Below are positions 12,549 through 61,622 of a stretch of DNA of 64,000 bases, one piece after another. The translations under genes and the position numbers were made by a program. Position 1 is the first letter of the stretch. Every line of letters begins with the position of its first letter. Source of the DNA: Spirochaetia bacterium (GTDB lineage: Bacteria > Spirochaetota > Spirochaetia > UBA9216); assembly GCA_963675665.1 (NCBI GenBank), contig OY776510.1, forward strand, positions 4,800,001 to 4,864,000, in the 5' to 3' direction. The notes beneath the pieces were generated by a model. The model searched no databases. It saw nothing but the letters and a program-made list of their open reading frames with translations, and had not been told where the DNA came from.

Positions 12549-12574
12549 GCCCGGAGCCCCAACTCCGGGCTTTC
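12549..12574 (+). terminator. Intrinsic terminator after kduD
   Basis: GCCCGGAG-N6-CTCCGGGC followed by TTTC. Confidence 0.6.
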
Positions 12575-12629
12575 AATTTTATAATTAAATGATATAATTT
12601 TCAGGATTTTATAAAATACGGAGAGTTAA

Positions 12630-13391: not shown

Positions 13392-13603
13392 ACATTAAAG
13401 CTTTAAAAGTAATCAATATTCTGCTGCTTATAGATTTTCTTGTTATTGGAGTTACGGCGATACTGAATAATATGATACAGGCAACCGGGTTATATTTTAT
13501 ATTTCATGCTGTTCCCGGTTTCCTGTTTCTGGTACTTGCAGTCTGCCATTTAGTTCTAAACAGAAAATGGCTAAAAACCAATTACTTCTCTAGAAAGAAA
13601 TAA
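13388..13603 (+). CDS. Small two-TM membrane protein (DUF4405-like, two His)
   Basis: INILLL...G; FHAVPGFLFLVLAVCHLVLNRKW (H-x13-H, N..W pattern); start overlaps the IclR stop codon. Confidence 0.6.
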   Translation: MNIKALKVINILLLIDFLVIGVTAILNNMIQATGLYFIFHAVPGFLFLVLAVCHLVLNRKWLKTNYFSRKK

Positions 13604-14051
13604 CGGTACTGTCGCGGTACCGGTGCATGGATGTGAAATTATCCCGTGCTCCGTATGCAACTATTACAGGAAGTTTACTTGCCCCGGATCCTGTAAAATC
13701 CGATTTTAAAACTGTAAACTTAACAGTCGTAACTCCGTCCGTTTCTTCTACTTCATAAACAACAGGTCTCTGGATATCTGTTTTCTGATGACCATGCCCC
13801 TTACCAAGATGTTCTTCAAAAAAAGCTTCTCCGTCTTTATTATATCCTATAAATATTGCGGATCCGTCCATTCTTGAACTTCCGAGTCCAACAGCTATCC
13901 AGCCCTTTGTCTCTGCCTTCAGGCTGATAGTCAGCTCATCGCCGTCCAAACCCCATTCAAGGCTGGCTTTTTTAAGTTCAATCAGGTTCTCTGCTGTGAC
14001 AAAACCGGTAATAATGAAAAGCAACAATGATACAATCAACAATTTCTTCAT
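13590..14051 (-). CDS. Exported DOMON-domain protein
   Basis: Signal peptide; L.W, GWIAVG, RMDGS..FIG, IVAYG, terminal MH. Confidence 0.75.
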   Translation of the reverse strand: MKKLLIVSLLLFIITGFVTAENLIELKKASLEWGLDGDELTISLKAETKGWIAVGLGSSRMDGSAIFIGYNKDGEAFFEEHLGKGHGHQKTDIQRPVVYEVEETDGVTTVKFTVLKSDFTGSGASKLPVIVAYGARDNFTSMHRYRDSTVISF

Positions 14052-14165
14052 AATAAACTCCTTATATAGAAAATATTATTAAATTTATAACCGGTCAATA
14101 TCTTTCTTTTCGTGATTGGTTGATCTTCCAATAATCTCCGGAAGACCGAAATGTTTTCGATATAT

Positions 14166-14816
14166 TTATTTAAAATAATAACTGTTCAGATGTATGGATA
14201 CCAATTTTTCAGCCTGCTCAACATTATGCTGATTGACGGCTTCGATGATATCCAAATGGAGGCTGACGCTGGATTTAATAGACTCGGGGGAGAGATCTTC
14301 GATATTCCGTAACAGCTGCACTTTCAGGTCAAGTTTTTCTACAAAATCCTGCAGATATTCATTTCCGGAATATTCCGCCATCTTGCGGTGGAATTTACTG
14401 TCGGCTTCAAAACACAGGGCGACTTCATTTTTTTCAGCATATTCAATAGTTTTTTCAGCTATCTCTCTAAGCTCATGATACTGTTCTTCCGTTATTTTTT
14501 CTGACAGCAGTCTGACGGAAAGCGTATCAAGCTGGATTCTAAGCAATCCTATATCAGTTCTGTCTTCCGGGCGGATTCGGACTACCTCCGCATATTTTCT
14601 TGGATAAATAGTTACCAGGCCGTTCTTTTGAAGTTCACGCAAGGCTTCACGAATAGGAGTTCTGCTGACCCCGAACACATTGCCGATAGCTTCTTCAGGT
14701 ATTCTCTGTCCGCCTTTCAGCTCCTGGGTTATAATCAACCGCTTGATATGGGAATATACCTGTGCTGAAAGATTGCTCTTTTCTATATTTTTTTTTACTT
14801 CCTTCAGATCTGCCAT
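14166..14816 (-). CDS. GntR family (FCD) transcriptional regulator
   Basis: GVSRTPIREAL; D.KFH, SGN, H..I. Confidence 0.92.
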   Translation of the reverse strand: MADLKEVKKNIEKSNLSAQVYSHIKRLIITQELKGGQRIPEEAIGNVFGVSRTPIREALRELQKNGLVTIYPRKYAEVVRIRPEDRTDIGLLRIQLDTLSVRLLSEKITEEQYHELREIAEKTIEYAEKNEVALCFEADSKFHRKMAEYSGNEYLQDFVEKLDLKVQLLRNIEDLSPESIKSSVSLHLDIIEAVNQHNVEQAEKLVSIHLNSYYFK

Positions 14817-14861
14817 ACTGGTTCCAGTATATTGTAACCCGATACTGTTGTAAACTACTTA

Positions 14862-14899
14862 AAAATTCCTGCCTGCCCATCCAGGCAGACAGGAATTTT
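14862..14899 (-). terminator. Intrinsic terminator after the SDR ending the GRE operon
   Basis: AAAATTCCTGCCTGCC...GGCAGACAGGAATTTT inverted repeat. Confidence 0.6.
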
Positions 14900-14904
14900 A
14901 TTAT

Positions 14905-15696
14905 TCAATCCATAAATTTCGGTTGATTGGTATGGGCAGTAAGCGCCCCGTCAACAGCAATATTGGTTCCGCTTACAAAGCCTGCCAGGTCGGAGGCCAG
15001 AAAAAGGACAACTTTGGCGACATCTTCAGGTTCGGCAATTCGTCCCATCGGATACTGTGCTCTGAATATTGAATCACATTTCTCTTCTCCTATGGAAGCA
15101 GCACATGCATCATACATTGCAGTTCTCATTGAACCGGGACAAACTGCATTTACTCTAATATTATCTTTTGCATGATCCAGCGCCATTGCCCTTGTCATGT
15201 TCGTAACAGCACCCTTGGAGGTATTATATGCTACGCAGGCGTAATCTCCAAACAAACCGGATACTGATGAAGTATTTATAATTGAGCCGCCGCCCCGTTT
15301 TCTCATCTGCGGAATAAAAGCCCGCGAAGTAAAAAAGAAACCTCTGACATTAACTGCATTCACAATATCCCATTCGGCTGTTGTAGTATTTTCAGCTTCA
15401 GCTCCTTTCAGAATGCCTGCATTATTGAACAGAACATCACACCCGCCAAATTCCGTCTCAACATAATCAGCAACTGAATTGACTTCGTCTTCTTTCGAAA
15501 TATCTGATTTAATGAAAATAATTTTACCGCTGCTTTCTGATTTAAGTTTCTCTGAAAGAGCTTTTCCGGCACTCTCATTGAGACCGGTAAAAATAACATT
15601 TGAACCTTCACGGGCAAATAAGTTTACAGATGCTGCCCCCAGACCGGATTCACCGCCTATAACAACAACATTCTTTCCCTTCAATCCTGATTCCAT
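14905..15696 (-). CDS. SDR family oxidoreductase
   Basis: GGESGLG, NNAG, SS, YNTSK, VNAVCPG. Confidence 0.9.
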   Translation of the reverse strand: MESGLKGKNVVVIGGESGLGAASVNLFAREGSNVIFTGLNESAGKALSEKLKSESSGKIIFIKSDISKEDEVNSVADYVETEFGGCDVLFNNAGILKGAEAENTTTAEWDIVNAVNVRGFFFTSRAFIPQMRKRGGGSIINTSSVSGLFGDYACVAYNTSKGAVTNMTRAMALDHAKDNIRVNAVCPGSMRTAMYDACAASIGEEKCDSIFRAQYPMGRIAEPEDVAKVVLFLASDLAGFVSGTNIAVDGALTAHTNQPKFMD

Positions 15697-15710
15697 CTGT
15701 CTCTCCTTTT

Positions 15711-16643
15711 TTATTTTCGTTTTAGAAGTTCAAACGCCTTGACTTTCACATTGGCGGCTGTCAGCCCGTAAGCTTCCTGAAGCCATGCAACATCTCCGAC
15801 CTGGCCGAACAGATCGTTTATACCCACACGGGCCATTGGAGTGGGCAAGTTTTCACCAAGAACCTCTGCAACCGCAGAACCGAGACCGTTAATCACCTGG
15901 TGGTTCTCACAGGTTACTATCGCTCCCGTTTTTTCGGCATATTCTATAATCAGTTCAGCATCTATCGGTTTGATCGTATGCATATCGATCACTGCAGCCG
16001 ACACCCCTTCTTTCTCAAGCTCGGCTGCCGCTTTTACCGCCTCCGGGACCATCACGCAGCCGCTTGCTATTATGGTAAGATCACTTCCATCCTTTATAAC
16101 TTTCCCTTTACCCAGCCTAAAAACCTCACCGTCGCTGTAAACTGCCGGGCTTGCCTTCCGGTTCAGCCGCATATAGGTGCATCCTTTATGGTCTTTTGCC
16201 TGAGGAACAAGCGCAGCAAGAGATGCTCCGTCGCAGGGTTCATATACAACCAGCCCGGGGATATTTCTCATAAGGCCAATATCCTCAAAAGGCATATGTG
16301 TTCCGCCGTTAAGCGCCGCAAGAATACCGGGATCGGAACCAACAAGGTTTACATTCTGCTGCGCGTAGTTACCGGACAGGAAAAACTGGTCGTATGCCCG
16401 GCGCGCGGCAAAACATGCAAAAGTTGAGGCAAAAGGAATCTTTCCCGTCGCAGATAATCCCGAGGCTATACCTACCATATTGGCTTCAGCTACTCCGCAG
16501 TTTACTATTCTGTCCGGATAGGCCTCCTTGAACGGTGTAGTTCCGGTTGCCCTCATAAGGTCCGCTTCCAGAAGGACTATTCGTTCATCTTCCTTTGCAA
16601 GCTCAATAAGTGTTTCGGTAAATACCGCTCTCATTTCTTTCAT
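15711..16643 (-). CDS. Transketolase, C-terminal (pyrimidine-binding) subunit, copy 1
   Basis: GVAEANM, RAYDQ, GGTH, MHTIKPID, ENH...GLGSAVAE. Confidence 0.92.
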   Translation of the reverse strand: MKEMRAVFTETLIELAKEDERIVLLEADLMRATGTTPFKEAYPDRIVNCGVAEANMVGIASGLSATGKIPFASTFACFAARRAYDQFFLSGNYAQQNVNLVGSDPGILAALNGGTHMPFEDIGLMRNIPGLVVYEPCDGASLAALVPQAKDHKGCTYMRLNRKASPAVYSDGEVFRLGKGKVIKDGSDLTIIASGCVMVPEAVKAAAELEKEGVSAAVIDMHTIKPIDAELIIEYAEKTGAIVTCENHQVINGLGSAVAEVLGENLPTPMARVGINDLFGQVGDVAWLQEAYGLTAANVKVKAFELLKRK

Positions 16644-17482
16644 TATACCGTCTCCTTCTCAAGCACAGCTACGGCATCCTCTGCTTCTTTCAAATCGAAC
16701 TTCATGTTGTGGCTTGCTACCTGCCCTTCTCCCGGAGCAAAACCTTTCGCTTTTACCGTATCAAGAATTATCATCGACGGCCTCTGAGACTCAGCCTGTG
16801 CATTCTGCACTGCCCAATCCAGTTCCCTGAAATCATGGCCGCTTACCCGCTGTACATACCAGCCGAAGGACAGCCATTTTGATGTAATATCCGAAATGTC
16901 CATTACCTCGTGCATATAACCGTCAAGTTCCATCTTGTTGTAGTCGGTAAAAGCAATAAGATTGCCGAGTTTAAACTGGGCGCCGGCCATTGCAGCTTCC
17001 CAGATTTGACCTTCATTACTTTCGCCGTCGCCTATTATCGTATAAATTGTGTTGTGATATCCGTTCATCCGATCACCTAGCGCCATGCCGATCGAACATG
17101 AAAATCCCTGCCCTAAAGACCCGGTCGTCATATCAATTCCGGGCGTCAGGTTCATGTCGCAATGGCTCGGCAGCCTGGAACCGCCCTTATTCAGCGTTTC
17201 AAGCCAGGATTCGGGGAAATATCCCTTGTCGGCAAGAATGCTGTACAACGAGGGGCCGGCATGACCTTTCGACAGTACAAGCTTGTCCCTGTCAGGTCTT
17301 TTCGGATTGTTCACATCGATGTTCATATGCCTATAGTACAGCAGAGTCAGCGTATCCACTATCGACATCGCTCCCCCTATGTGCCCTACACCGAGGTTTC
17401 CCATTGATAAAATCGTCATTTTTCGTATCTGTTTTGCTTTGGTTTTCAGCTCCGATACATCTTTTTCCGTCAGCATTTCCAT
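16643..17482 (-). CDS. Transketolase, N-terminal (TPP-binding) subunit, copy 1
   Basis: GHIGG, LSKGH, TGSLGQG, GDGE..EG..WEA...N. Confidence 0.92.
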   Translation of the reverse strand: MEMLTEKDVSELKTKAKQIRKMTILSMGNLGVGHIGGAMSIVDTLTLLYYRHMNIDVNNPKRPDRDKLVLSKGHAGPSLYSILADKGYFPESWLETLNKGGSRLPSHCDMNLTPGIDMTTGSLGQGFSCSIGMALGDRMNGYHNTIYTIIGDGESNEGQIWEAAMAGAQFKLGNLIAFTDYNKMELDGYMHEVMDISDITSKWLSFGWYVQRVSGHDFRELDWAVQNAQAESQRPSMIILDTVKAKGFAPGEGQVASHNMKFDLKEAEDAVAVLEKETV

Positions 17483-17488
17483 AACTCA

Positions 17489-18466
17489 CTACTTCCTGTA
17501 CAGAAACCAGCCGTCATTCTCATTTCCGCCGGTTTCTTCCTTATATGTTTTGGTTCCCGAGCCTCCAACGTTAACTGTAAAGCCCCGGGTTTCTGCAAGC
17601 GAAACGCAAAACGCAAGCTGCGCAGCATTTTCTTCTTTCCTGTCCTTCAGCCGATACTCATAATCAAGCATTTCATACTTTGACGAGCCTATCTGATGAA
17701 ACGGCATCAGGTGTATTTCTTTTACTCTGTCCAAACTTTCACAGATATCAAGTATTCCGCTGAATTCAGTCTTGTCATCATTAACTCCCGGTATCAGGGG
17801 TATTCGGGGAATTATCTCTATGTTATGTCTCGAAGCTTTCTTTAAATTTGAATAAATCAGTCTTTTATCCGTTCCAATCCATTTGCGGTGCAAATCGTTA
17901 TTGGCAAGCTTGATGTCATAAAGCAAAAGATCGGTAACGGGTAAAATCTTCTCAAAACTTTCCCACGGCACATGTCCGCAGGTTTCAACAGCTGTACCGA
18001 ACCCTTTCTTCCTAATCACACTGAATACGTCAAAGACAAAATCAGGGTATAGCAGCGGTTCGCCGCCGCTGAACGTAATGCCTCCGCCGGTATTTCTGTA
18101 GACGACTTCATCCTTAAGCACTGTTTCACAGACCGCCTCGGGGCTGTAAAGGCTTCCGGACATCTTGCGGGCGCCGAAATAACAGACATCTGTACATGCT
18201 CCGCAGTCTGTACAGACTGATCGATCTGTAACGGCAATTCCGTTTTTCATTTCTATTGCATTCGCAGGGCAAACTGAAACACAAGCTCCGCAGCCGGTGC
18301 AGAGTGCATTATTCATCATCAGAACAGCAGTATGCCTGAAGGTTTCGGGGTTCTGGCACCAGCTGCACCGCAACGGACATCCTAGAAAAAATACTGTGGT
18401 TCTTATCCCGGGGCCGTCGTGAACCGAGAACCTTTGAATGTTTGATATATAGACTGAATCAGACAC
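17489..18466 (-). CDS. Glycyl-radical enzyme activating protein (radical SAM with 2x[4Fe-4S] insert)
   Basis: HDGPGIRT, GCPLRCSWCQNPE, CTGCGACVSVCP, CTDCGACTDVC, SGGEPL; start uncertain (GTG 18466 or TTG 18481). Confidence 0.93.
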   Translation of the reverse strand: MSDSVYISNIQRFSVHDGPGIRTTVFFLGCPLRCSWCQNPETFRHTAVLMMNNALCTGCGACVSVCPANAIEMKNGIAVTDRSVCTDCGACTDVCYFGARKMSGSLYSPEAVCETVLKDEVVYRNTGGGITFSGGEPLLYPDFVFDVFSVIRKKGFGTAVETCGHVPWESFEKILPVTDLLLYDIKLANNDLHRKWIGTDKRLIYSNLKKASRHNIEIIPRIPLIPGVNDDKTEFSGILDICESLDRVKEIHLMPFHQIGSSKYEMLDYEYRLKDRKEENAAQLAFCVSLAETRGFTVNVGGSGTKTYKEETGGNENDGWFLYRK

Positions 18467-20810
18467 AGCCGCCCTTATCAAACCTTTTGATTATATTATC
18501 CTGCTGTACCGGCGACATTGCTATAAAGTAGGCTGAAAGTCCGCCCATCCTCACACGAAGGTCCCTGTGCATTTCGGGATTTTCTTTCGCATCTTTCAAA
18601 TCTTCAACGTTTGTACTTGTTACCGTAAGTATCTGCCCCCCGAGATCGCAGAAAGACTTTATAAGTCCGTTCAGCCTGTCGATGCCGGCCTCGCCTTCAA
18701 ATTCATTCGAATTGATTGCAAGATCAAGCGGACAACCGCTGTAATATTTCAACAGAATCGGTTTCGTAATACTTTTAATGACTGCTGTAGGCCCTTCAAT
18801 ATCAGCTCCAGGATTGGGAGAATAGTTCGGAGCAAGCTGGGCCCCGTTTGTTCTGCCGTCTGCGGAAGCGGCAATACCCCGTCCAAGTACGGCATAATTC
18901 TCAAATGTTCCGATACCGACCGGAAACTTCATTGTATCCTGCTTTTTATTCCAGCGGGCCACACTGTCTTCAAAATCCTTCATAACCCGGATTCCAAGAG
19001 TATCAACAAAATCAATATCATTACCGAATTTTGGAACTTCATTAATAACCCGGGCCCTCAGACGTTCAAACCCTTTCCAGTTGTTCCGTATGGCTTCTAT
19101 AAGCTCTTTAAGGCTGACCGACTTGTCTTCAAAAACCAGCTTCTTTATTACAGCAAGCGAATCTACCGTATTCGACAGGCCTGTGATAAGAATCTGATGA
19201 AAGATGAACCTTGCCCCGTCCTGGCTGAGGTCTTTTCCTTTGTCAATACAGTCGTCAACAATTGACGACATGAGAGGATCGGGTGCTATCATATATGAAA
19301 GACCGAAATTCTCAAGTCTGCGATGACATTGAAAATCTATTCTTGCATCTACCTGCTTTTTATAAGCCGCATAGAATTCTTCAAAATTTTCGAGTTTTTC
19401 CGGATCCCCTGTATCAAGTCCTTCCGCAGCATCTCTGAGCAGACTTTTCCCTCTGAAAAGCACCCATTCAAGGCACTGCAGATTCATAACATGAGCATAA
19501 CTGAAATAACTCTTTCCGGGGATGAGAGTTTCCCAGCACCCGTCGTTTGTATAATGCCTTGCATCTTCAACCGGAACCCCGATATCAACAAATCCGGGCA
19601 CTATGAAATCATCGTTATAAATCATCGGCTCGCCCTGTCCGTAACGCAGGACTTCTGCTATCTTGCGCCTGAATGATTCAGGGCAGTTTTTATGAACTCG
19701 GGCGCCCATTGTAGGCATTAAAAGCTTCATATCATGCATAATGTCAAGAATGAGATAAGAAAGCTCGTTGGTTACATCATTTCCGTCGGAATCAGTACCT
19801 CCGACTATACAATTCATCAGCCAGTCGTTGCCGGACTGCCCGTAATTAAAGTTTGCTTCAGAATCATCGTCCTCATCGTCCTGCCAGGTTAGCCCCCGCT
19901 GGTCGTAACCTCCGGTAATTGTTTTTGCCGCTGCTTCATCCGGCACATTTCCCTGTGAGAACAGCCCGAAAGTATAATGATTTTCGGCTTTACGGGTATC
20001 GGTTATTATCCTTTCGTTACATTTGACGAGAAAACTTCCGATTATATCAATCGCCTTTTCTTCGGTTATCCGGCCTTCTTCAAGATCCCTTTTAAAATAC
20101 GGATAAAGATACTGGTCGGCCCTTCCGAGCGGAACATATTCACCTCCGCTATTTACAAGGCAATAAGTGAACCAGTATGCCTGGGCTGCTTCCTGCAGAG
20201 TTTCTGATGGATTCTCAGGCACCTTTCGACAGATTGCAGCCATTTCAAGAAGCTCAGCCTTTCTAACAGGGTCTTCTTCTTCACGCGCCAAAGTTTCGGC
20301 GGCGGCCGCATGGCGATTAGCGAAAGCTACAAGCCCGTCAAGAGCAACCAGCATTGCACGGTATTCAGTCAGAGCTTCTTCGTTCGGTTCTGCAGCAGCC
20401 TTCCGGACTTCAGCAGCAGCGTTAATTTTTGCGCGCACGCTGACGACACCGTCATTAATAATTTCCCACCATTTAGGAGGATGATGTCCCCATACTGAAG
20501 CTTCATTCAGCATATACCTCGAGGCCTGAAAACCTTCCTCTTCGGTATAATAGATAGGCATTATCGTACCCCATCCGACTGAATTCTGATTGGGATTGCC
20601 GCAAATAAGCTCATCATCCTTAATAATTGCCGGAAGATGCTCGCCCATATATTTCTGGGCCATTGCCTTGCGGACTACAAGAGGTTCTTTTTCAAGCTCA
20701 CTGTTTCCATCCAGAATGTTCACATCCAGAAAATGCCAGGTGCCGGGATCATGATACTCGACATCAAACAGCCTTTTCTGAATTTTTTTTAGCCGTGAAG
20801 TAAGATCCAT
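18459..20810 (-). CDS. Glycyl radical enzyme (PFL superfamily, not PFL), substrate unknown
   Basis: 783 aa; GRADQYLYP, Cys loop DGCWE, PKFGND, ASADGR, Gly loop LRVRMGGLSAYF; activase adjacent. Confidence 0.92.
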   Translation of the reverse strand: MDLTSRLKKIQKRLFDVEYHDPGTWHFLDVNILDGNSELEKEPLVVRKAMAQKYMGEHLPAIIKDDELICGNPNQNSVGWGTIMPIYYTEEEGFQASRYMLNEASVWGHHPPKWWEIINDGVVSVRAKINAAAEVRKAAAEPNEEALTEYRAMLVALDGLVAFANRHAAAAETLAREEEDPVRKAELLEMAAICRKVPENPSETLQEAAQAYWFTYCLVNSGGEYVPLGRADQYLYPYFKRDLEEGRITEEKAIDIIGSFLVKCNERIITDTRKAENHYTFGLFSQGNVPDEAAAKTITGGYDQRGLTWQDDEDDDSEANFNYGQSGNDWLMNCIVGGTDSDGNDVTNELSYLILDIMHDMKLLMPTMGARVHKNCPESFRRKIAEVLRYGQGEPMIYNDDFIVPGFVDIGVPVEDARHYTNDGCWETLIPGKSYFSYAHVMNLQCLEWVLFRGKSLLRDAAEGLDTGDPEKLENFEEFYAAYKKQVDARIDFQCHRRLENFGLSYMIAPDPLMSSIVDDCIDKGKDLSQDGARFIFHQILITGLSNTVDSLAVIKKLVFEDKSVSLKELIEAIRNNWKGFERLRARVINEVPKFGNDIDFVDTLGIRVMKDFEDSVARWNKKQDTMKFPVGIGTFENYAVLGRGIAASADGRTNGAQLAPNYSPNPGADIEGPTAVIKSITKPILLKYYSGCPLDLAINSNEFEGEAGIDRLNGLIKSFCDLGGQILTVTSTNVEDLKDAKENPEMHRDLRVRMGGLSAYFIAMSPVQQDNIIKRFDKGGCV

Positions 20811-20831
20811 TGTTACCTCCTTGGAATTCAG

Positions 20832-21803
20832 CTATTTAATCGATAAATGCCGGCTTGACCGATCGACAGTCAGATAAACCGCAAGAATCACTATAAAGCC
20901 GAAAACAACCTGCTGCCAAAAAGTATCGACACCTACAACCTGCATACCGTTATTGATTATGGTAACAACTGCCACGCCTATAATGGTTCCAAGCACACCG
21001 CCCTTTCCGCCTGACAACGCTGTGCCTCCCAAAGCAACAGCGGCAACAGCCATCAGAGTGAACGGTTCACCTACTGTCGGGATCCCGCTTTTGAGTTTGG
21101 CTGAAAGAAGGATTCCCATACCCGCACTTCCGATACCGCATACAGTAAAAACCATCATTTTTGTAAAGTTAATCCTGACGCCCGCCATTCTTGCACCGCG
21201 CTCATTTGCCCCGATTGCATAGATGTATTTACCCAGCTTTGAGTAATTCAGCAGAATGTAACATATTGCAACAATGCTCAGAGCAACAATCAGCACAAGC
21301 GGGAAGAATCCGAATTTAATTTTCGACCAGTTTATAAAATTCCAGAGTTTCAGGTTTATCTGGACCGGTGCGCCGTGCGAGATAACATAGGCAACCGACT
21401 GCCAGACAGACATCGCGCCGAGAGTTGCGATAAACGACGGAATCTTTACCCTTGTATACACTATTCCGTTGATAAGCCCTGCGACAACTCCGAAGGCTAA
21501 TGCCCATAGATATGCCATTGCACCCCAGTGCGGCAGCGTAATTGCGAAAATGACGGAGGCACATGATGCTATGGAACCGATAGAAAGATCTATAGACCCG
21601 ATGAGCAGTACCATGGTTACACCGCAACCCATTACCAGCAGCGGCCCCATATCAGTAAGCAAATTCTTGATATTGAATAAACTTAAAAAGTTTTTATTAA
21701 TAATGGTGAATACTGCAACCAGAATAATTATCGCAAACAACGAAATATAATCCATGAAATTTTTACGTATTGCACCCTCTTTCTGAAACGCCTTTATCAT
21801 CAA
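20832..21803 (-). CDS. Sugar ABC transporter permease
   Basis: GSIDLSIG, PSFIATLG, AIGANE, GGTALSGGKG. Confidence 0.92.
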   Translation of the reverse strand: MMIKAFQKEGAIRKNFMDYISLFAIIILVAVFTIINKNFLSLFNIKNLLTDMGPLLVMGCGVTMVLLIGSIDLSIGSIASCASVIFAITLPHWGAMAYLWALAFGVVAGLINGIVYTRVKIPSFIATLGAMSVWQSVAYVISHGAPVQINLKLWNFINWSKIKFGFFPLVLIVALSIVAICYILLNYSKLGKYIYAIGANERGARMAGVRINFTKMMVFTVCGIGSAGMGILLSAKLKSGIPTVGEPFTLMAVAAVALGGTALSGGKGGVLGTIIGVAVVTIINNGMQVVGVDTFWQQVVFGFIVILAVYLTVDRSSRHLSIK

Positions 21804-21811
21804 CAGGCCTC

Positions 21812-23338
21812 CTACATCATGTGCTTGATGATATCAAGCTGCTCAGGTTTATTATTCTTTGAGGCATCGATTTCCTGAGTAATCACACCATCTTTCATGA
21901 CAATTATTCTATTGCTCAGCCCGATTGATTCATCAAGCGTATCTCCAAGCAGAATAACTGACAGCCCCCTGTTCGCCATTTCTCTTATCAGTTCGTAAAT
22001 TTCCTCTTTTGCACCTACATCAACACCACGCGTCGGGTGATTAAGGATCAGAACCTTGCTGTCGGAGGCCAGCATTCTCGCAAATACAATCTTCTGTGCA
22101 TTTCCGCCCGAAAGCGAACTGACTTCTTCATTATAATCAGTACATTTAACATTAAGGGTATCTATCCAATGCTGTGAAATTTCCTGCTGTTTCTTTTTGG
22201 AAATAAGCAGTCCGCTCTTCGCTGCGTCAAGGTTTGCAATTGTAATATTTTCAAGGATGCTGAGAAGTCCGAGAATCCCCTCTTCTCTCCGCTCTTTCGG
22301 TACCGAAAGTATCCCTTTCTTCAGCGCATCATGCGGTTCGGAAAATTTTACATCCTTTCCTTCAAATTTTATTCTTCCTCTCGACGGAGCAATGTCTCCT
22401 GAAAGTATTGAACATACATCCTCTTTTCCGGATCCTACAACACCACAGAAACCCAGAATTTCGCCTTTATGCAGTTTAAATGAAACGTCCTTGAATCTTC
22501 CTGTAAGCCCGATATTATCGACTTCCAGAACAACATCTTCCTGAGGATCCGACTGATCGGCGATCTTAAAGTACTCACCGGTACTGGAGCGTCCTACCAT
22601 CAGCTCATACAGCTTGTTCTCCGTCACATCATCTCTTTCAAGCTCGCCTACCCTGTAACCGTCCTTGAATACATAAACACGGTCCGATATCTCCATAATT
22701 TCATCAAGACGATGAGAAACAAATATTATTGAGTGCCCCTCATTCTTCAGTTTTCTGATCTCGGTAAAAAGCGTCTGGATTTCAGCATCACTCAATACAG
22801 AAGTCGGTTCATCAAGCAGAATGAGTGAATTTTCCTCACTGCTGGCCCTTGCCGCATTCAGAACCTTTGATATTTCAACCATCTGCCTGCGGGCAAAGTT
22901 AAGGTCCTTAATCTTGGTTTCGGGTTTGATATTAGTGATACCTACATCGCCGAGAACCTTGGAGGCTTTCTGATACATTGCCCTCCAGTTTACAAATCCG
23001 CCTTTCAGAAACTTTTTTTCTTCACCAAAGAAGATATTCTGCCCGACAGTAAGGTTGGATACAAGCGACTGTTCCTGAAAAACCATACCCACGCCCATTT
23101 TATTACCTTCACGAGGTTTTTTTGGAGCGTATTTACGACCGCGCATCTCCATTGAACCGTTTGAAGGCGGCTGAACACCAATAAGGATTTTAAGAAGCGT
23201 AGATTTACCGGCGCCGTTCTCTCCGACAAGCCCCACGATCTCTCCCTTTTTAATGTCCATCGATACACCCTGAAGCGCTTTGGTACCGGGGAAAAATTTC
23301 GAAACATTATTTACTTTAAATAGTACATTATCCGACAT
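21812..23338 (-). CDS. Sugar ABC transporter ATP-binding protein
   Basis: GENGAGKST, LDEPT, LSGGNAQK, HPTRGVDVGAK. Confidence 0.92.
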   Translation of the reverse strand: MSDNVLFKVNNVSKFFPGTKALQGVSMDIKKGEIVGLVGENGAGKSTLLKILIGVQPPSNGSMEMRGRKYAPKKPREGNKMGVGMVFQEQSLVSNLTVGQNIFFGEEKKFLKGGFVNWRAMYQKASKVLGDVGITNIKPETKIKDLNFARRQMVEISKVLNAARASSEENSLILLDEPTSVLSDAEIQTLFTEIRKLKNEGHSIIFVSHRLDEIMEISDRVYVFKDGYRVGELERDDVTENKLYELMVGRSSTGEYFKIADQSDPQEDVVLEVDNIGLTGRFKDVSFKLHKGEILGFCGVVGSGKEDVCSILSGDIAPSRGRIKFEGKDVKFSEPHDALKKGILSVPKERREEGILGLLSILENITIANLDAAKSGLLISKKKQQEISQHWIDTLNVKCTDYNEEVSSLSGGNAQKIVFARMLASDSKVLILNHPTRGVDVGAKEEIYELIREMANRGLSVILLGDTLDESIGLSNRIIVMKDGVITQEIDASKNNKPEQLDIIKHMM

Positions 23339-23347
23339 ATCTTCCCC

Positions 23348-24358
23348 CTATTTCATTATTGTTCCGCGACCCCGGGTTACGGAGAGAGAAACAGCGATTA
23401 TAATTATTATCCCCTGAATAGCCGCCTGAAAATACGGATCAACTCCCATCAGGACCAGTCCGTTCTGCAGTACCGTTACTATCAGGGCACCAAGCAGCGT
23501 ATTCATTACACCGCCTTTACCGCCCGACAAGGCCGTTCCGCCAACAACAATTGCAGTCATAACCGGAAAAAGGTTTCCTTTGCCGACCAGAACCGTTCCG
23601 CGGCCCAGTCTTGCGGAACCTATGATTCCGCCGAGACCTATGCACAACCCTGACCATGTAAAAGCAAGAATTTTAACTCTGTCTACATTTATACCAGCCT
23701 GACGCGGAATCGATTCATCATCACCAATGGCATAAACATAGCGTCCGAAAGGAGTGTATTCCTGTAAAATATATGCAATTATAAATACCACAAATGCTAT
23801 CCATGTCAGAATGGGAATTCCGAGAAATTTATTCAACGCAATCCCTCTGAACATACTATCCTGAATTGTAGCAGGTATTCCGCTGTAAGTAATAAGCGCA
23901 ATGCCGGCCGCAACACTGGACATGCCGAATGACACCATAAAGGAAGGGATTTTTGCCTTCACCTGGATAAAACCTGTAACAAATCCGGCGGCTGCTCCTA
24001 TCAGGACAGTTATCACTATTCCCATCAACCCAAGATCCATTGCAGTTTTTGTATTTGCTACAAGAAGACTGACGACAGCCGCTGTCAGCCCCATGACCCC
24101 GTCTACCGATAAATCAATACTTCCCATCAGAACAACAAAAGTAACCCCAAGCGAAACTATCAGCGGTACTGAAAGCTGAGCCAGTATTGTTATAAAATTT
24201 GTACCGGATATAAAATCTTTATTTAAAATACCAAAAATACCGATTATTACGAGCAGTACAATAATCGGTGCTATCTGGGTAACTCTGTTACGCTGATTTT
24301 CGCGTTTTACCCTTGCCGCAAACTCTTCAGCTATCGACAAATCAGTAGCATTACTCAT
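23348..24358 (-). CDS. Sugar ABC transporter permease
   Basis: GSIDLS, IPSF, GGTALSGGKG. Confidence 0.92.
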   Translation of the reverse strand: MSNATDLSIAEEFAARVKRENQRNRVTQIAPIIVLLVIIGIFGILNKDFISGTNFITILAQLSVPLIVSLGVTFVVLMGSIDLSVDGVMGLTAAVVSLLVANTKTAMDLGLMGIVITVLIGAAAGFVTGFIQVKAKIPSFMVSFGMSSVAAGIALITYSGIPATIQDSMFRGIALNKFLGIPILTWIAFVVFIIAYILQEYTPFGRYVYAIGDDESIPRQAGINVDRVKILAFTWSGLCIGLGGIIGSARLGRGTVLVGKGNLFPVMTAIVVGGTALSGGKGGVMNTLLGALIVTVLQNGLVLMGVDPYFQAAIQGIIIIIAVSLSVTRGRGTIMK

Positions 24359-24383
24359 TTTTTAGAACCTCCATAAAAACTGT

Positions 24384-24413
24384 TGAACAGGCCCCGTTTC
24401 CGGGACCTGTTCA
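24384..24413 (-). terminator. Stem-loop downstream of SBP gene
   Basis: TGAACAGGCCCCG-TTTC-CGGGACCTGTTCA. Confidence 0.55.
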
Positions 24414-24419
24414 GAGATG

Positions 24420-25481
24420 CTATTCCATAGCCTTGTAAATGATTGACCAGTAATCTTCAAAGTCGAATGTTGGCCGACCTTCGATATAACCGGCTACATA
24501 ATCGTCAATATTTTCGGTGCTGACCAGCAGACCTGCAGTATTGAACATCATCTGTTCTTCAGTCATCTTTGTTGTATCAATGTAACCCTTGTATGCAGCA
24601 TAAGGAAGTGCAAGACCGAATCCGCCCTGAAGCCATGGATTAACAGAAACTGTTGCAACCATATCGCCGTTCTGGATGGCTGTAATTGCGTCAGCAATAC
24701 CGTCAACTCCGGCTACAGCTACTTTACCATTGAGCCCTTTTGCTCTAAGCGCTTCTACAACTGCAAGAGCCATACTGTCGTTCGCAACCCAGATACCGTC
24801 GATATCGCCGTAGGTTGAAAGCCATGTTTCAGTAATTTCAAGAGCTTTTGCGGGGTTCCAGTCGCCGGCCTGATCATCAATCAGTTCTACACCGGGGTAT
24901 TCGCTGAGAGCTTTCTGAAGGCCTTTAAATCTGTTTATTGCAGCAGAGTTTGCAAGCATTCCCTGGATAGCAAGAATCTTGCCCTTGCCGGGAGTTTTAA
25001 AGCTGTCGAACATAGCTACAGCAATGTCATGACCCGATTTCTGATCATCCGGAGACATGTGAAATACATAGTGTGGATAGTCTCTCGGGTGCAGGCCTTC
25101 TGCGGTGCTCCATACTGTCATCCAGTAAACACCTGCTTCTTCACATATTTCTGCAATTGCTGCAGCGTTAGGTGCATTATTCGGGTCTACATAGAGGATG
25201 GTATCTTTTCCACCTCTTGCAATTGCAGCTTTGATGTTGTTAAGCTCTTTTTCGTCGCTACCATCGCTGACAAGAAGCTGGACATCAATTGTATCCTCGT
25301 CTACTGAATCAGCAAACATCTTGGCGCCCTCTTCAACAGAGAGGTAATACGGATTAGACAGACTTCGGATTGATACTCCGGCAAGTACGGTCTTCGGTCC
25401 TGTCTCCTGCTGCCCTCCGGCAAATACAGGTGCTGCCAGTACTGCGAGTACGATTAATGCAGCAATTACCATCTTTTTCAT
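24420..25481 (-). CDS. Sugar ABC substrate-binding protein
   Basis: VFAGGQQE; SNPYY, RFKG, ANDSMA, GVDG. Confidence 0.9.
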   Translation of the reverse strand: MKKMVIAALIVLAVLAAPVFAGGQQETGPKTVLAGVSIRSLSNPYYLSVEEGAKMFADSVDEDTIDVQLLVSDGSDEKELNNIKAAIARGGKDTILYVDPNNAPNAAAIAEICEEAGVYWMTVWSTAEGLHPRDYPHYVFHMSPDDQKSGHDIAVAMFDSFKTPGKGKILAIQGMLANSAAINRFKGLQKALSEYPGVELIDDQAGDWNPAKALEITETWLSTYGDIDGIWVANDSMALAVVEALRAKGLNGKVAVAGVDGIADAITAIQNGDMVATVSVNPWLQGGFGLALPYAAYKGYIDTTKMTEEQMMFNTAGLLVSTENIDDYVAGYIEGRPTFDFEDYWSIIYKAME

Positions 25482-25493
25482 AAATTCCTCCGA

Positions 25494-26516
25494 TTAAGAT
25501 ATTTGTATAACAGGCTTTATAAGCCTGGTATCACCATTGACAAGTTCTGAAAAAACTTGAGGGCATTCATCAAGAGTATGAATGCTTACTACACCTTCAG
25601 TATTAATATGTCCGCCCGAAAGAAGGTTTATTGCTCCTTCAAAATCAACAGGTTCATAAACCCTTGTTCCCCTGATAGTCAGTTCTGCAAAATTCGCTCT
25701 GCGAAGATCAACATTCGTCTCCCCTTTTGCAATGCCTACCTGAACAACCGTTCCGCGAACCCTGGTATTGTCTATTGCAGACTGGTACCCGGTATTTGAC
25801 CCTGAAACTTCAAAAGAAAGATCCGGGCCGTTGCCGTTAAAAAAATCCTTAACTGCAGCAGGGAAATCAGTATCAACAGGAGAGACAACATTAATCCCGT
25901 GCTTTTTTAACAACTCCAGGCGGGCTTCGTTTATCTCCGATACCAGCAGCCTGTTAACACCGGAGGATTTAAGAACTTCAGACAACAGAATCCCGATGGG
26001 ACCGCCGCCGATAATAAAAACATTATCGCCGGGCTTGTACCCGGAAAATCTGATATCATGCAGAGCTACTGCACAGGGTTCAACAATACCGCCGAGCAGC
26101 CGCGGCATTTCTTCCGGCAGCATGTGAAGTTTTTGCTCATTCACGACTGCATACTCGGTAAAACCGCCATGAGTATCTACGCCAAGCAGCCTGAGACTGC
26201 TGCATACATGAGGAAACCCGTTACGACAGGCATAACATTTTCCGCAGGACAGAAGTGCATCAGCGGCTACAAAATCCCCTTTCGAGAACCTCGTCACATC
26301 TTCGCCGGCTTCTTCTATTACTCCGCAGAATTCATGTCCGAGGACCATCGGCGGAACTGAACGGTTTTCGTCAAACTTACCCTTGTAGATAGCAAGATCG
26401 GTTCCGCAAATACCGGAAGAAACTATTTTCAGAAGAACTTCGTCTTTTTTGTATTCTGGTACCGGGATTTCACCAATCGTCATTTCTCCGGCTCCGGTCC
26501 ATATGGCAGCTTTCAT
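25494..26516 (-). CDS. Zn-dependent polyol/sugar-acid dehydrogenase (MDR), copy 1
   Basis: GICGTD, GHE, CGKCYAC...C, GGGPIG. Confidence 0.9.
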   Translation of the reverse strand: MKAAIWTGAGEMTIGEIPVPEYKKDEVLLKIVSSGICGTDLAIYKGKFDENRSVPPMVLGHEFCGVIEEAGEDVTRFSKGDFVAADALLSCGKCYACRNGFPHVCSSLRLLGVDTHGGFTEYAVVNEQKLHMLPEEMPRLLGGIVEPCAVALHDIRFSGYKPGDNVFIIGGGPIGILLSEVLKSSGVNRLLVSEINEARLELLKKHGINVVSPVDTDFPAAVKDFFNGNGPDLSFEVSGSNTGYQSAIDNTRVRGTVVQVGIAKGETNVDLRRANFAELTIRGTRVYEPVDFEGAINLLSGGHINTEGVVSIHTLDECPQVFSELVNGDTRLIKPVIQIS

Positions 26517-26550
26517 TAAATCCTCATATATTCAAAATAAATTGAAATAT

Positions 26551-26686
26551 TTCTTGTATTATATTTATTATATTGTATACTTTATAACTGAGTTGTCAAG
26601 CTTTTTTGACATTAATTTATTTAGTGAGCAATTGTGTGTAATTTTTATACAGCCTTGACAGAAATACTGTATATTTTATATAAAAT
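26551..26686. promoter_or_regulatory. Divergent sigma70 promoters with candidate GntR operators
   Basis: Minus: TTGACA (26594-26599)-N16-TACAAT; plus: TTGACA at 26655; motifs ATTGTATACTTTATA (26572) and ACTGTATATTTTATA (26666). Confidence 0.55.
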
Positions 26687-26720
26687 AACAGGATATCCGA
26701 ATTAGTAATGGAGATATATT

Positions 26721-27386
26721 ATGGATAGTCATGCGATCTTTTCCGAAAACATTCAAACCCGAACTCTTCCTGATCAGATCTATGACTACATTAAAAGCAT
26801 GATAATGAATCTCGAGCTAAAGCCCGGCGATAAAATTCCTGAAGATAAAATAGCTGAAAACCTGGGAGTCAGCAGAACGCCTATTCGAGAGGCTATCCGA
26901 AAACTTCAGCAGTACGGTATTGTTGAAGTAGTTCCCAGACGATTTGCAAAAGTAGTTGAAATAGATATGAGGGCAAAACATAATCTTGGAGAAATAAGGA
27001 TCGCCATAGATAAAATATCAGTAAGACGCCTGGCCGAAATTGCAACCGAAGAGCATTGCGATGCTCTGAGAATGATTGCGGATAATTGCGTCAATCTGGC
27101 TGAAACCGGTAACAGGGTTGAGCTTTTCGAATGCGATTCGGATCTTCATATTGCAATAGCAGTTATGTCGGGGAACCCATATCTTGAAGATATAGTCAGA
27201 AGCCTCAATGCCAAAGTACAACTTCTTTTGGCCAATTCATATCATGGTATTAAATATTCAAGAAACGAACAGTTTTCACATTATAAAATAATAGAAAGCA
27301 TCAGGGCTCACGATGTTGAAAATGCTGTGGAACTTGCCGAAAAACACCTGAGAAAATTCTACTTCGCAGATGATCCAATGCTATAA
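26721..27386 (+). CDS. GntR family (FCD) transcriptional regulator
   Basis: LGVSRTPIREAI; DSDLH, SGNPYL. Confidence 0.92.
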   Translation: MDSHAIFSENIQTRTLPDQIYDYIKSMIMNLELKPGDKIPEDKIAENLGVSRTPIREAIRKLQQYGIVEVVPRRFAKVVEIDMRAKHNLGEIRIAIDKISVRRLAEIATEEHCDALRMIADNCVNLAETGNRVELFECDSDLHIAIAVMSGNPYLEDIVRSLNAKVQLLLANSYHGIKYSRNEQFSHYKIIESIRAHDVENAVELAEKHLRKFYFADDPML

Positions 27387-27393
27387 TAACTGC

Positions 27394-28380: not shown

Positions 28381-28414
28381 GAACCAGGTCAAAGAACGTA
28401 ATTCACCGGGGTTA

Positions 28415-29899
28415 TCAATCCCTGAAAAGATCGTAATAGGGATCACCGACATACATAATATGGTTCTTGACTTTAAGATATTCCAGTAATCCTTCCATTC
28501 CGTCTTCACGGCCAATCCCGCTGTTGCGATTTCCCCCGAAAGGAGATTCTATATTTGACATCGCGCTGGTATTCATCCAGACAGTTCCCGCATCCAGCTT
28601 CCCGGCCGTCCAAAAAAGTTTTCTGGGGTTCTCACTGAAGATAGCGGCACCAAGGCCGAAGCGGGTTGCATTTGCCAGCTCTACAGCTTCTTCCAGATCA
28701 CTGTATTTTGTTACAGCAAGAACGGGGCCGAAAACCTCTTCATGAAAAATAGTCATTTCGGGCGTGACTTCATCAATTATTGTAGGAACATAATAAAACC
28801 CTTTATTGTACGGCGGCTCAGTCAGCATATAACCTCCACAGCGAAGTCTCGCCCCCTGAGCTAAAGCCTGTTTAACATGAGCATCAACTGAATCCTGCTG
28901 ACTTTTATCAATCAGGGATCCCATCTGCGTATTATCATCAAGCGAATCGCCCAACCTTATCGCCCCCACTTTTTCTTTCAGCGCGTCCATAAATCTGTCG
29001 TAGATCTTTTCTGACAGCAACAGCCGGCTTGACGAACAGCAGACTTCCCCCTGATTCATACAGAAACCGAGAGTTACACCGCTCAATGCGCCTTCAAAAT
29101 CGCAGTCAGGCTCAACAATAGCGGGGCTCTTTCCCCCCAACTCGAGGACAAGTTTCTTAATCATACGGGCTTTTGATGAGGCTTCCATTAGTCTCCGTCC
29201 AACAGCTTCACTTCCGGTTAAAGCAACGATGTTAACATTATCACTTGCAAGCAGCGCCTCGCCTACAACAGATCCCGGACCTGCGACTGCATTATATACA
29301 CCGGCGGGAACACCTGCTTCAATAAAAATCTCTCCGAGGATCTGGGCTGTTACAGGCGTTTTTACAGAAGCTTTACAGACAACTGTATTACCGGCAGCAA
29401 GCGCCGGAGCAATTGAGCGGGTAAGCAAATGAAGAGGAAAATTCCACGGAGATATGCAAGCCGTTACCCCGTAGGGTTCATAAGTTACATAATCGAATTT
29501 TTCCTTTCCGGGTATATGAATTACCTGACCGCGCAGCATTTTAATTGCATCAGCATGAAACCGGAAAGCACGGGATGATAACGGGATATCTATTATACGG
29601 CATTCCCTGACAGGCTTTCCGGTATCCATAGCTTCCCAACGACTCATTTCCTCCGCTCGTTCGTCTATAAGATCTGCAACACGATGCAGAAAGGATGAAC
29701 GTTCATCAATCTCCAATTCCGACCACACCCCGCTTTTAAAAGCGTTTTGGGCCGCCGATGCCGCCCTCTCCGCATCTTCTGCTGTAGCCTTTGCAAGTTC
29801 TGCAATTGGTTCGCCATTACAAGGATTGATCGAAAAGAAGGTTTCACCCTTTGCCGCATCCTGCCATTGATTATTAATCAACAGTTTAAATTTTCTCAC
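28415..29899 (-). CDS. NAD(P)-dependent aldehyde dehydrogenase
   Basis: PWNFP, TGS, LELGGKSP, NQGEVC, EEVFGP, PFGG; GTG start at 29899 behind AGGAG. Confidence 0.93.
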   Translation of the reverse strand: MRKFKLLINNQWQDAAKGETFFSINPCNGEPIAELAKATAEDAERAASAAQNAFKSGVWSELEIDERSSFLHRVADLIDERAEEMSRWEAMDTGKPVRECRIIDIPLSSRAFRFHADAIKMLRGQVIHIPGKEKFDYVTYEPYGVTACISPWNFPLHLLTRSIAPALAAGNTVVCKASVKTPVTAQILGEIFIEAGVPAGVYNAVAGPGSVVGEALLASDNVNIVALTGSEAVGRRLMEASSKARMIKKLVLELGGKSPAIVEPDCDFEGALSGVTLGFCMNQGEVCCSSSRLLLSEKIYDRFMDALKEKVGAIRLGDSLDDNTQMGSLIDKSQQDSVDAHVKQALAQGARLRCGGYMLTEPPYNKGFYYVPTIIDEVTPEMTIFHEEVFGPVLAVTKYSDLEEAVELANATRFGLGAAIFSENPRKLFWTAGKLDAGTVWMNTSAMSNIESPFGGNRNSGIGREDGMEGLLEYLKVKNHIMYVGDPYYDLFRD

Positions 29900-29983
29900 T
29901 TTACAACTCCTTTCGGCAGCTATAAAAGTCCTTCCTGAAACCACCACCAATATAACGCCATTTGAAAATATAGTTCAATAACT

Positions 29984-61620: not shown

Positions 61621-61622
61621 AT

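Follow-up and report, generated by a model that had tools for sequence, protein, structure and literature searches.

A glycyl radical enzyme operon with a split transketolase in a Spirochaetia bacterium: a possible kinase-free route for the anaerobic catabolism of polyols

Introduction

What reaction might a glycyl radical enzyme (GRE) catalyze in an operon that also encodes a sugar importer and a split transketolase (TK), and in which no kinase is found? The question is raised by an operon in the genome of a Spirochaetia bacterium, within a stretch of 64,000 nucleotides (positions 4,800,001 to 4,864,000 of contig OY776510.1, assembly GCA_963675665.1) that we refer to as the window and whose numbering is used below. 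A preliminary description of this DNA had proposed a kinase-free anaerobic route in which an imported, unphosphorylated polyol, anhydro-sugar or sugar acid is converted by radical chemistry to a (deoxy)ketose, from which TK harvests a two-carbon (C2) unit. We retain the kinase-free route and the harvest of a C2 unit by TK as the most sensible reading, and we replace the (deoxy)ketose by an aldehyde. Overall, we read the operon as encoding the kinase-free anaerobic catabolism of an imported neutral polyol, for which the most parsimonious candidate would be a C5 or C6 alditol; we give the whole scheme, C2 transfer by TK included, a probability of roughly 45%. The narrower claim, that the GRE is a C-O eliminase that converts an imported polyol-like compound to an aldehyde, seems to us probable, if not strongly so.

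Results

The operon consists of ten consecutive open reading frames (ORFs) on the minus strand, running from 26516 to 14905, whose coordinates give spacings of -23 to 61 bp. Its first gene encodes a Zn-dependent medium-chain dehydrogenase (25494..26516; Pfam domains ADH_N and ADH_zinc_N) and is followed by a complete CUT2-family ATP-binding cassette (ABC) importer: a periplasmic substrate-binding protein (24420..25481; Peripla_BP_4, 143 bits), a first permease (23348..24358; BPD_transp_2; RbsC-/AraH-like, under NCBIfam cut-offs), an ATPase with two nucleotide-binding domains (21812..23338; ABC_tran twice; AraG-/XylG-/RbsA-like, under cut-offs), and a second permease (20832..21803; BPD_transp_2). 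Then come the GRE of 783 amino acids (aa; 18459..20810), a radical S-adenosylmethionine (SAM) GRE activase (17489..18481; TIGR02494, 329 bits against a cut-off of 174), the thiamine diphosphate (ThDP)-binding N-terminal subunit of the split TK (TK-N; 16643..17482; Transketolase_N, 155 bits), the subunit with its pyrimidine-binding and C-terminal domains (TK-C; 15711..16643; Transket_pyr and Transketolase_C), and, as the last gene, a short-chain dehydrogenase/reductase (SDR; 14905..15696; adh_short_C2, 207 bits). The activase ORF overlaps the GRE ORF by 23 bp, and the start of TK-C overlaps the stop of TK-N by 1 bp. Catalytic motifs, read from the sequence, are intact in every operon enzyme. 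Families of kinases, phosphotransferase system (PTS) components, aldolases and bacterial microcompartment (BMC) shell proteins had no match in any of the ten operon proteins (Pfam, NCBIfam), and BMC shell families had none among the related-locus genes scanned. ORF coordinates, Pfam and NCBIfam thus agree with the initial picture of ten packed minus-strand genes between GntR regulators, with no kinase, PTS, aldolase or BMC gene among them.

The GRE is a CXE-type enzyme and a member of an uncharacterised family. It scores over the gathering scores of PF02901 (PFL-like, 467 bits) and PF01228 (Gly_radical, 57 bits) and falls under all NCBIfam cut-offs. The top model is TIGR01774, the PFL2/glycerol-dehydratase family model (441 vs 678), and the equivalog scores and cut-offs are 393/1100 for HypD, 392/1000 for HpsG, 312/1000 for HpfG, 381/1050 for CutC, 334/1109 for the PflD type, 276/1100 for IAD, 189/1150 for HPAD and 83/994 for PFL. 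Among normal-length chains in the PDB, CutC, HypD, propanediol dehydratase (PD), IseG and glycerol dehydratase (GD) are near-equal relatives (1e-89 to 1e-97), and YbiW and PflD are weaker matches (1e-73 to 1e-86). These relatives align well with the GRE only over its C-terminal ~450 residues, from ~325 on, and ~45 residues between ~285 and ~325 are extra relative to CutC and PD. A June 2026 GRE review lists eliminases for C-O (six), C-N (one) and C-S (three) bonds and three isomerases; the present family is not among the GREs treated there, and the word "transketolase" occurs zero times in the review. The expectation that this enzyme lies outside the characterised groups is therefore upheld by the equivalog scores, by the C-terminal-only alignment and by the review.

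Three motifs characterize the protein: WGHHPP (107-112), NDGCWE (422-427) and RVRMGGLSAYF (752-762). It has a single catalytic Cys in a Cys-X-Glu loop, where formate lyases have Cys-Cys. All 24 of 24 family members share G424-C425-W426-E427, and C425-W426-E427 never varies in the two subfamilies defined below. According to the June 2026 review, every characterised GRE 1,2-eliminase keeps Cys-X-Glu, as do the isomerases HplG, YbiW and PflD. The glycine motif R754-M755-G756-G757-L758 aligns with RVAGY of CutC, HypD and PD; relative to RVxG[FWY] it has Met for Val and Leu for the aromatic residue, and the Gly is present. None of the 24 members departs from R754, G756 or G757, and at least 90% have L758; M755 is in neither list. 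The family-invariant WGHHPP loop aligns with the IseG loop that carries the sulfonate-binding Arg and Gln, and Gly108 and Lys113 occupy those two positions in the alignment, given an inferred offset between chain and literature numbering. This loop is a likely specificity determinant. His109/His110 might be the counterpart of the catalytic His of glycerol dehydratase, a guess from the numbering offset at a site that the alignment could not map.

Relatives of the GRE are scattered. A protein search gave 380 significant matches; the family has more than 120 clusters (90% identity), and for each of the best 120 the identity over the full length is 58% or more. On metagenome contigs, the motifs Y[STC]NDGCWE and S[VI]WGHHPP yielded 329 relatives, which together with 16 genome loci were sorted into subfamily 1 (41 loci, identity of 55% or more) and subfamily 2 (49 loci, 38-54%). 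Carriers include Spirochaetota metagenome-assembled genomes (MAGs), Clostridium tyrobutyricum, C. algifaecis, an Enterococcus, a Christensenella MAG and Faecalicatena faecalis, and in a sample of the host phylum an orthologue was present in only 1 of 400 other genomes. Given this scatter, the family is sporadic and probably mobile. In cultured clostridia, C. tyrobutyricum and C. pasteurianum relatives have orthologues with 57-59% identity. Subfamily 2 is present on contigs labelled human gut metagenome.

The genes around these relatives carry most of the argument. Locus ORFs were labelled by BLAST against the window proteins and neighbours were checked with Pfam; tallies cover the subfamily-1 loci whose flanks reach 6 kb or more (23 loci, the window itself left out). 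One of them, from a long-read MAG (L011), is apparently frameshifted, with the longest ORF over the GRE region antisense and unreliable gene calls, and was kept in the tallies. An activase is present in 20 of the 23 loci and a Zn-dehydrogenase in 16, the latter 33-51% identical to ours and often directly after TK. An aldehyde dehydrogenase (ALDH) or an aldehyde:ferredoxin oxidoreductase (AOR) occurs in 15 loci, split TK in 14, CUT2 ABC genes in 14, an Fe-type alcohol dehydrogenase (Fe-ADH) in 13 and GntR in 13. Less frequent are an SDR (7/23), an MFS, SSF or MIP transporter (7/23), a GFO-family oxidoreductase (5/23), thiolase, Hbd, AbfD-like or AbfT-like genes (5/23), and the pair ROK plus DeoC (3/23). 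RpiB and PFK accompany TK in two loci (L017, L019), and a TalC/Fsa-family gene lies between the TK halves in two others (L018, L020). Subfamily 2 (32 loci) has ABC genes in 22, ALDH or AOR in 14 and TK in 4. Because the same combination recurs around GRE orthologues elsewhere, the gene set of the operon is more than a chance assembly, and the linkage of GRE homologues to split TK and sugar ABC genes that the preliminary description had anticipated is borne out.

Three loci (L024, L042, L045) constrain the product. They carry the ABC importer, GRE and activase together with a ROK kinase, a ROK regulator and an aldolase in place of TK, Zn-dehydrogenase and ALDH. The aldolase of L024 is a deoC equivalog (272 bits against a cut-off of 117), and the copies in the other two were labelled by BLAST. 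Across 27 subfamily-1 sequences there are 180 invariant positions; the three GREs deviate uniformly at a single position that is invariant in the other 24 and share all motif loops. They are also nested in the TK-linked clade. These near-identical motifs and the nesting suggest that the GRE reaction is probably the same, and a product that is open to phosphorylation and to cleavage by deoxyribose-phosphate aldolase fits a 2-deoxy-aldose. An aldehyde product, like that of other C-O eliminases, is also indicated by the aldehyde oxidizers, which are the most constant catalytic neighbours; in the host genome, too, a GRE paralogue with 42% identity sits between an AOR gene and its own activase. It is on these two grounds, the ALDH/AOR neighbours and the replacement of TK by ROK and deoC in nested loci, that we abandon the (deoxy)ketose for an aldehyde of the 2-deoxy-aldose type. 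With an aldehyde as product, the dehydrogenases must create a ketol before TK can act.

Two further loci (L021, L009) hold an orthologous binding protein, the GRE and an ALDH, with no TK within 10 kb. Since importer, GRE and ALDH can thus stand together without TK, the gene arrangement suggests that the GRE acts on the imported compound and not on a leftover of TK.

The remaining operon proteins are consistent with their assigned families. The activase has a CPLRCSWC (CX3CX2C) motif and two ferredoxin-type Cys motifs. TK-N has the GDG...N ThDP motif, and its best PDB match is the split-chain TK 6yak (1.3e-70); the two TK chains pass PF00456, PF02779 and PF02780 and score 243-262 against 488 on TK equivalogs, as expected for half-length chains. 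The Zn-dehydrogenase is under all NCBIfam cut-offs (best Tdh, 209, and IolM, 200), has the catalytic Cys/His/Glu, four structural Cys and a GGGPIG motif, and appears to be like a polyol, threonine or butanediol dehydrogenase. The SDR (catalytic YxxxK motif YNTSK) comes nearest to the BudC equivalog (261.5 vs 270) and passes the subfamily model NF005559 (233 vs 215).

The binding protein has a signal peptide without a lipobox Cys. Its best PDB match is 2rjo (1.4e-65), and a literature search on the 2RJO ligand returned nothing useful. Orthologues with 47-63% identity occur in L009, L015, L021 and L039; two 42% paralogues in the host genome adjoin a mannitol-dehydrogenase-family enzyme and an XylB-like FGGY kinase, and a 52% orthologue in another genome adjoins an FGGY kinase. 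Because these relatives lie in polyol-type clusters, and because the C. tyrobutyricum locus has a GlpF-type channel, import of a polyol is the reading that we prefer. The three substrate classes first proposed are thereby narrowed towards polyols, although the class is not settled.

The window also encodes an NAD(P) ALDH on the minus strand outside the operon (28415..29950; Aldedh, 532 bits). We count it in the system because orthologues with 62-74% identity lie directly beside the GRE and activase in L021, L022, L039 and L054; L009 has one with 51%. It is thus a probable pathway member, transcribed separately, as far as gene neighbourhoods can tell. An "ALDH_C" gene in L015 turned out to be ProA, which is unrelated.

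At the boundaries of the operon stand two GntR/FCD regulators (Pfam GntR and FCD). The first (14166..14816, minus strand), the probable pathway regulator, has homologues with 52-54% identity that head the ZnADH-TK-GRE clusters of L011 and L012. The second (26721..27386, plus strand) is divergent from the operon; its homologues beside the GRE in L018, L020, L021, L046 and L048 are weaker (28-39%). It shares an overlap with a GH88-like gene (27370-28380), which the related loci do not conserve. A promoter-like site on the minus strand 5' of the first operon gene (26572..26599; TTGACA-16-TACAAT, 11 of 12 consensus matches) has the joint top score in 13300-30200, the total of such sites being about equal in shuffled sequence. 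A 13-bp GC-rich hairpin with a T-run lies 3' of the binding-protein gene (24384..24413, minus strand; hairpin scan) and is possibly an internal attenuator or mRNA stabiliser, and a terminator-like hairpin, by consensus match, lies 3' of the last gene (14868..14889, minus strand; 8-bp stem, 5 GC pairs, T-run).

Beyond these elements, genes for uronates and unsaturated glycans lie on both sides of the operon (7104-13391 and 27370-32569): a TRAP transporter, two KduI-family genes, a KduD-like SDR, an IclR regulator, a psicose-epimerase-like TIM barrel and the GH88-like hydrolase, which is co-transcribed with the divergent GntR regulator. None of the uronate-type flank genes is conserved beside GRE orthologues in other loci. 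Inositol catabolism, suggested by GFO-type, TIM-barrel and KduI/IolB-family genes, was rejected for the window: 30039-30869 is a true KduI (424 bits vs 250), the TIM-barrel gene is psicose-epimerase-like, and related loci conserve neither of the two. An Atribacteria preprint that came up in the literature on inositol had no bearing on the operon. A small DOMON-domain protein (45 bits) is encoded at 13590-14051 (minus strand), just downstream of the first GntR regulator.

Near the end of the window, on the minus strand, is a near-duplicate module without a GRE. It comprises a CUT2 ABC importer (60598-63931), a GldA-like dehydrogenase (59105-60253), a FucO-like Fe-ADH (57923-59089), a Zn-dehydrogenase with 67% identity to the operon copy (56890-57912), and a split TK (TK-N, 55965-56819, 83%; TK-C, 55012-55965, 79%). 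GlpK is encoded at 46402-47898.

The host genome has nine GRE loci and about ten split-TK pairs. In one (L028; C1:161001-181000), AOR, the 42% GRE paralogue, its activase and a HAD hydrolase adjoin a second system with a CUT2 ABC importer, a GRE of ~28% identity and an activase, and a LysR regulator lies between the two. In another (L029; C1:4315416-4320903), two Zn-dehydrogenases, one 44% identical to that of the operon, directly precede a GRE (~30%) and activase, and the cluster adjoins a sigma-54 response regulator. Paired with a sigma-54 response regulator is a protein of 607-609 aa in which an N-terminal ABC-ATPase domain is fused to a histidine-kinase ATPase domain. Judged from its domains, this fusion is an unusual sensor architecture; it occurs twice in the genome (window 3862-7018, plus strand; L029:4120-7258), beside sugar transport or GRE clusters. 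In C. tyrobutyricum (L017) and C. algifaecis (L019), a second GRE (33-35%), activase and MFS transporter lie 3 kb downstream of the orthologous GRE cluster, and a Mutator-family transposase lies within the GRE cluster of L019.

Discussion

The scheme that we favour would run as follows. The CUT2 system would import the alditol, and the activase would install the radical on Gly757. The thiyl radical of Cys425 would take a hydrogen from the terminal carbinol, Glu427 would deprotonate its hydroxyl, and the neighbouring hydroxyl would leave, as in glycerol dehydratase. By analogy, a 1,2-elimination of this type on an alditol would yield a 2-deoxy-aldose, e.g., 2-deoxy-D-ribose from ribitol or D-arabinitol. 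Either the ALDH at 28415-29950 would oxidize the aldehyde or the SDR would reduce it, and the Zn-dehydrogenase would oxidize the penultimate carbinol at the other end to give an HOCH2-CO-CHOH- ketol. From this ketol the split TK would move a C2 unit to glyceraldehyde-3-phosphate, so that xylulose-5-phosphate would be formed and carbon would enter central metabolism without ATP. What is left would be a C3 or C4 acid-aldehyde, malonate semialdehyde from a C5 substrate and 3-hydroxy-4-oxobutanoate from a C6 one, and the SDR or ALDH would complete its conversion. Fischer-projection reasoning indicates that the ketol would have the C3 configuration of a TK donor for 2-deoxy-D-ribonate and 2-deoxy-D-gluconate. 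The order of the oxidation/reduction, ketol and TK steps and the chain length are the least certain parts of the scheme.

Several observations fit these later steps. Xylulose-5-phosphate as the product of TK is consistent with the RpiB and PFK genes or the TalC/Fsa gene near TK in four loci. The C6 version could explain the genes of C4-coenzyme A (CoA) metabolism in five loci. About 60 kb beyond the window, the host genome encodes a cluster of this kind (C1:4924390-4931726), with an AbfD-like protein of the 4-hydroxybutyryl-CoA dehydratase fold that is 58% identical to the copy in L016, an AbfT-like CoA transferase, a thiolase and Hbd, and this cluster may take the C4 product of the pathway.

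A number of points weigh against this scheme. TK is not within reach in 9 of the 23 loci and ALDH or AOR is absent in 8; in the window itself the ALDH lies outside the operon. Regulators of the GntR/FCD type usually sense carboxylates, which would fit a sugar acid or an acid intermediate. Cyclic sugars or inositols are the typical substrates of GFO/IDH/MocA oxidoreductases, which are directly upstream of the GRE in four loci and present in five. The 4-hydroxybutyryl-CoA-dehydratase-like, CoA-transferase-like, thiolase and Hbd genes of 5 of the 23 loci are explained by the C6 version alone. The ROK kinase is not of the usual deoxyribokinase type, and the nesting of the three ROK/deoC-linked GREs is a FastTree topology whose support values were not considered. 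Finally, the module without a GRE implies that Zn-dehydrogenase and TK can work without the radical step, which favours an order in which TK acts first.

That order is the strongest of the alternatives, though we consider it unlikely. The Zn-dehydrogenase would make a 2-ketose from the alditol, TK would move C1-C2 onto glyceraldehyde-3-phosphate, and the SDR or Fe-ADH would convert the aldose that remains, two carbons shorter, to a short polyol or diol (ethylene glycol, glycerol or a tetritol); the GRE would dehydrate this, and ALDH would oxidize the resulting aldehyde. The near-duplicate module indicates that Zn-dehydrogenase, TK and aldehyde reduction are a self-standing scheme in this organism, Fe-ADH genes are present in 13 of 23 loci, and the C4-CoA genes would suit a sequence from tetritol through 3,4-dihydroxybutanal to the acid. 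However, L021 and L009 have the orthologous importer, GRE and ALDH and no TK, and the ROK/deoC loci lack a TK/Zn-dehydrogenase step before a GRE whose motifs are nearly identical. The GRE itself scores 441 against 678 on TIGR01774, and it is no closer to the solved glycerol and propanediol dehydratases than to CutC or HypD; a short-diol substrate would therefore mean functional convergence.

The carboxylate preference of FCD-type regulators, which occur in 13 of 23 loci, leads to a second alternative. A sugar acid (an aldonate or C4-C6 hydroxy-acid) would have its terminal diol converted by the GRE to an acid-semialdehyde, which ALDH would oxidize to a dicarboxylate, with the Zn-dehydrogenase and TK shortening longer aldonates. 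The uronate-rich surroundings (the true KduI, the GH88-like gene, the TRAP transporter) and the under-cut-off matches of both dehydrogenases to L-idonate-/gluconate-5-dehydrogenases would agree with it. Yet KduI and GH88 are conserved in no related locus, the related loci carry CUT2 ABC, MFS and SSF transporters and a GlpF-type channel and no TRAP or acid-sugar types, and a ROK kinase with deoC would not process an acid-semialdehyde. We regard this substrate class as quite unlikely.

Could the GRE open a ring instead? As an isomerase acting on an unphosphorylated compound of the 1,5-anhydroglucitol/1,5-anhydromannitol type, it would give a 1-deoxy-ketose and be the ABC-import counterpart of YbiW/PflD. 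The CXE motif is common to the isomerase class, and the GFO oxidoreductase family, members of which lie beside the GRE in 5 of 23 loci, includes anhydrofructose reductase. For the SDR, the closest equivalog is BudC, an acetoin/butanediol enzyme whose chemistry is that of methyl ketones, and the TalC/Fsa-family gene in L018 and L020 could serve as well. Nevertheless, a 1-deoxy-ketose is no normal TK donor, has no need of ALDH or AOR and is not cleavable by a deoC-type aldolase, although it is these enzymes that the related loci conserve beside the GRE, and YbiW and PflD are among the weaker PDB matches of the GRE. An anhydro-alditol substrate therefore appears very improbable to us.

We consider a sulfosugar route like the sulfo-TK pathway, in which the GRE would be a C-S lyase or sulfonate dehydratase, extremely improbable: the only published co-occurrence of GRE and TK that we found, in sources available in part, belongs to sulfoquinovose degradation, but the Arg and Gln of the N-terminal loop that anchor the sulfonate in C-S cleaving GREs (June 2026 review) are replaced here by Gly108 and Lys113 (offset as above), which speaks against a sulfonate substrate, HpsG, HpfG and other models score 312-392 against cut-offs of 1000, and sulfoquinovosidase, isomerase and sulfite-handling families are unmatched in the operon and the flanking proteins scanned.

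Returning to radical dehydration of an imported alditol, we compared it with systems that are already understood. The B12-independent glycerol and 1,2-propanediol dehydratases share with this GRE the PFL2/GD-type fold, the single Cys-X-Glu, the C-terminal glycyl motif, a dedicated radical-SAM activase with extra ferredoxin clusters, and neighbouring aldehyde and alcohol dehydrogenases to handle the aldehyde. In contrast, they match only at E ~1e-89 to 1e-91 and over ~450 alignable C-terminal residues; the GRE here has the WGHHPP loop, CWE for CVE, RMGGL for RVAGY and the ~45-residue insertion, and it is tied to sugar importers and TK, presumably with a longer polyol as substrate. This is a clear member of the GRE superfamily that would, by analogy, work like a diol or glycerol dehydratase. 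Not described so far are the family to which it belongs, the substrate class presumed for it and the link to a split TK. The dha regulon offers a parallel for the radical step, as the dehydration of glycerol to 3-hydroxypropanal is likewise a radical conversion of a polyol to a 2-deoxy-type aldehyde. DeoK/DeoC deoxyribose catabolism resembles the fate of the presumed product in three related loci, where it would pass to a kinase and a true deoC aldolase, except that the kinase there is ROK-type.

In the sulfo-transketolase pathway the leftover aldehyde is reduced or oxidized by a dedicated dehydrogenase, and a GRE acts later in some organisms. That pathway is also kinase-free, with a split TK that takes a C2 ketol from an unphosphorylated donor, according to accounts available in part. 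It differs in that sulfonate-binding residues, sulfoquinovosidase and isomerase are missing here, and in that the GRE is a conserved core member and not a downstream sulfolyase. In YbiW/PflD anhydroglycolysis, too, a GRE with a CXE motif catalyzes the central reaction of an anaerobic route for carbohydrates, on a polyol derived from a sugar. Its substrates, 1,5-anhydroglucitol-6-phosphate and 1,5-anhydromannitol-6-phosphate, are PTS-phosphorylated and are converted to 1-deoxyfructose-6-phosphate, which an aldolase cleaves (PMC12441222; June 2026 review); this agrees with the background on which the preliminary description had drawn. The present system, in contrast, has ABC, MFS or SSF import without phosphorylation, with ALDH/AOR, Zn-dehydrogenase and TK as neighbours, and the similarity of its GRE to YbiW and PflD is no higher than to other GREs. 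A route from alditols to 2-deoxy-pentoses or 2-deoxy-hexoses was not found in the literature searched. Nor was a GRE-TK polyol pathway found in the full-text literature searched, which covers few subscription journals; there, GRE and TK are mentioned together only for sulfoquinovose.

We tentatively propose a general function for the family, which we think somewhat unlikely to hold in full: its members would be alditol 1,2-dehydratases that convert free sugar alcohols to 2-deoxy-sugars, including 2-deoxy-D-ribose, for ROK/DeoC or split-TK routes. If true, it would be the first demonstrated case of a GRE that acts on free C5/C6 polyols, would add free long-chain polyols to GRE chemistry as a new substrate class, and would reveal a previously unrecognised biological source of 2-deoxy-sugars. 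It would link radical dehydration to TK and give a second natural example of an ATP-free, transketolase-based entry to central metabolism. The clade is a testable case: the family is well delimited, its neighbourhood is conserved and can be interpreted, the two alternative downstream modules limit what the product can be, and there are cultured, non-pathogenic clostridial carriers. Since subfamily 2 occurs on human gut metagenome contigs, sugar-alcohol sweeteners would be obvious candidate substrates there. The enrichment of the host in GREs and split TKs is unusual and suggests that TK- and radical-based sugar and polyol routes are a trait of its lifestyle, and the proposed pathway would explain the use of reduced sugar alcohols by fermenters in the absence of both oxygen and activation by ATP.

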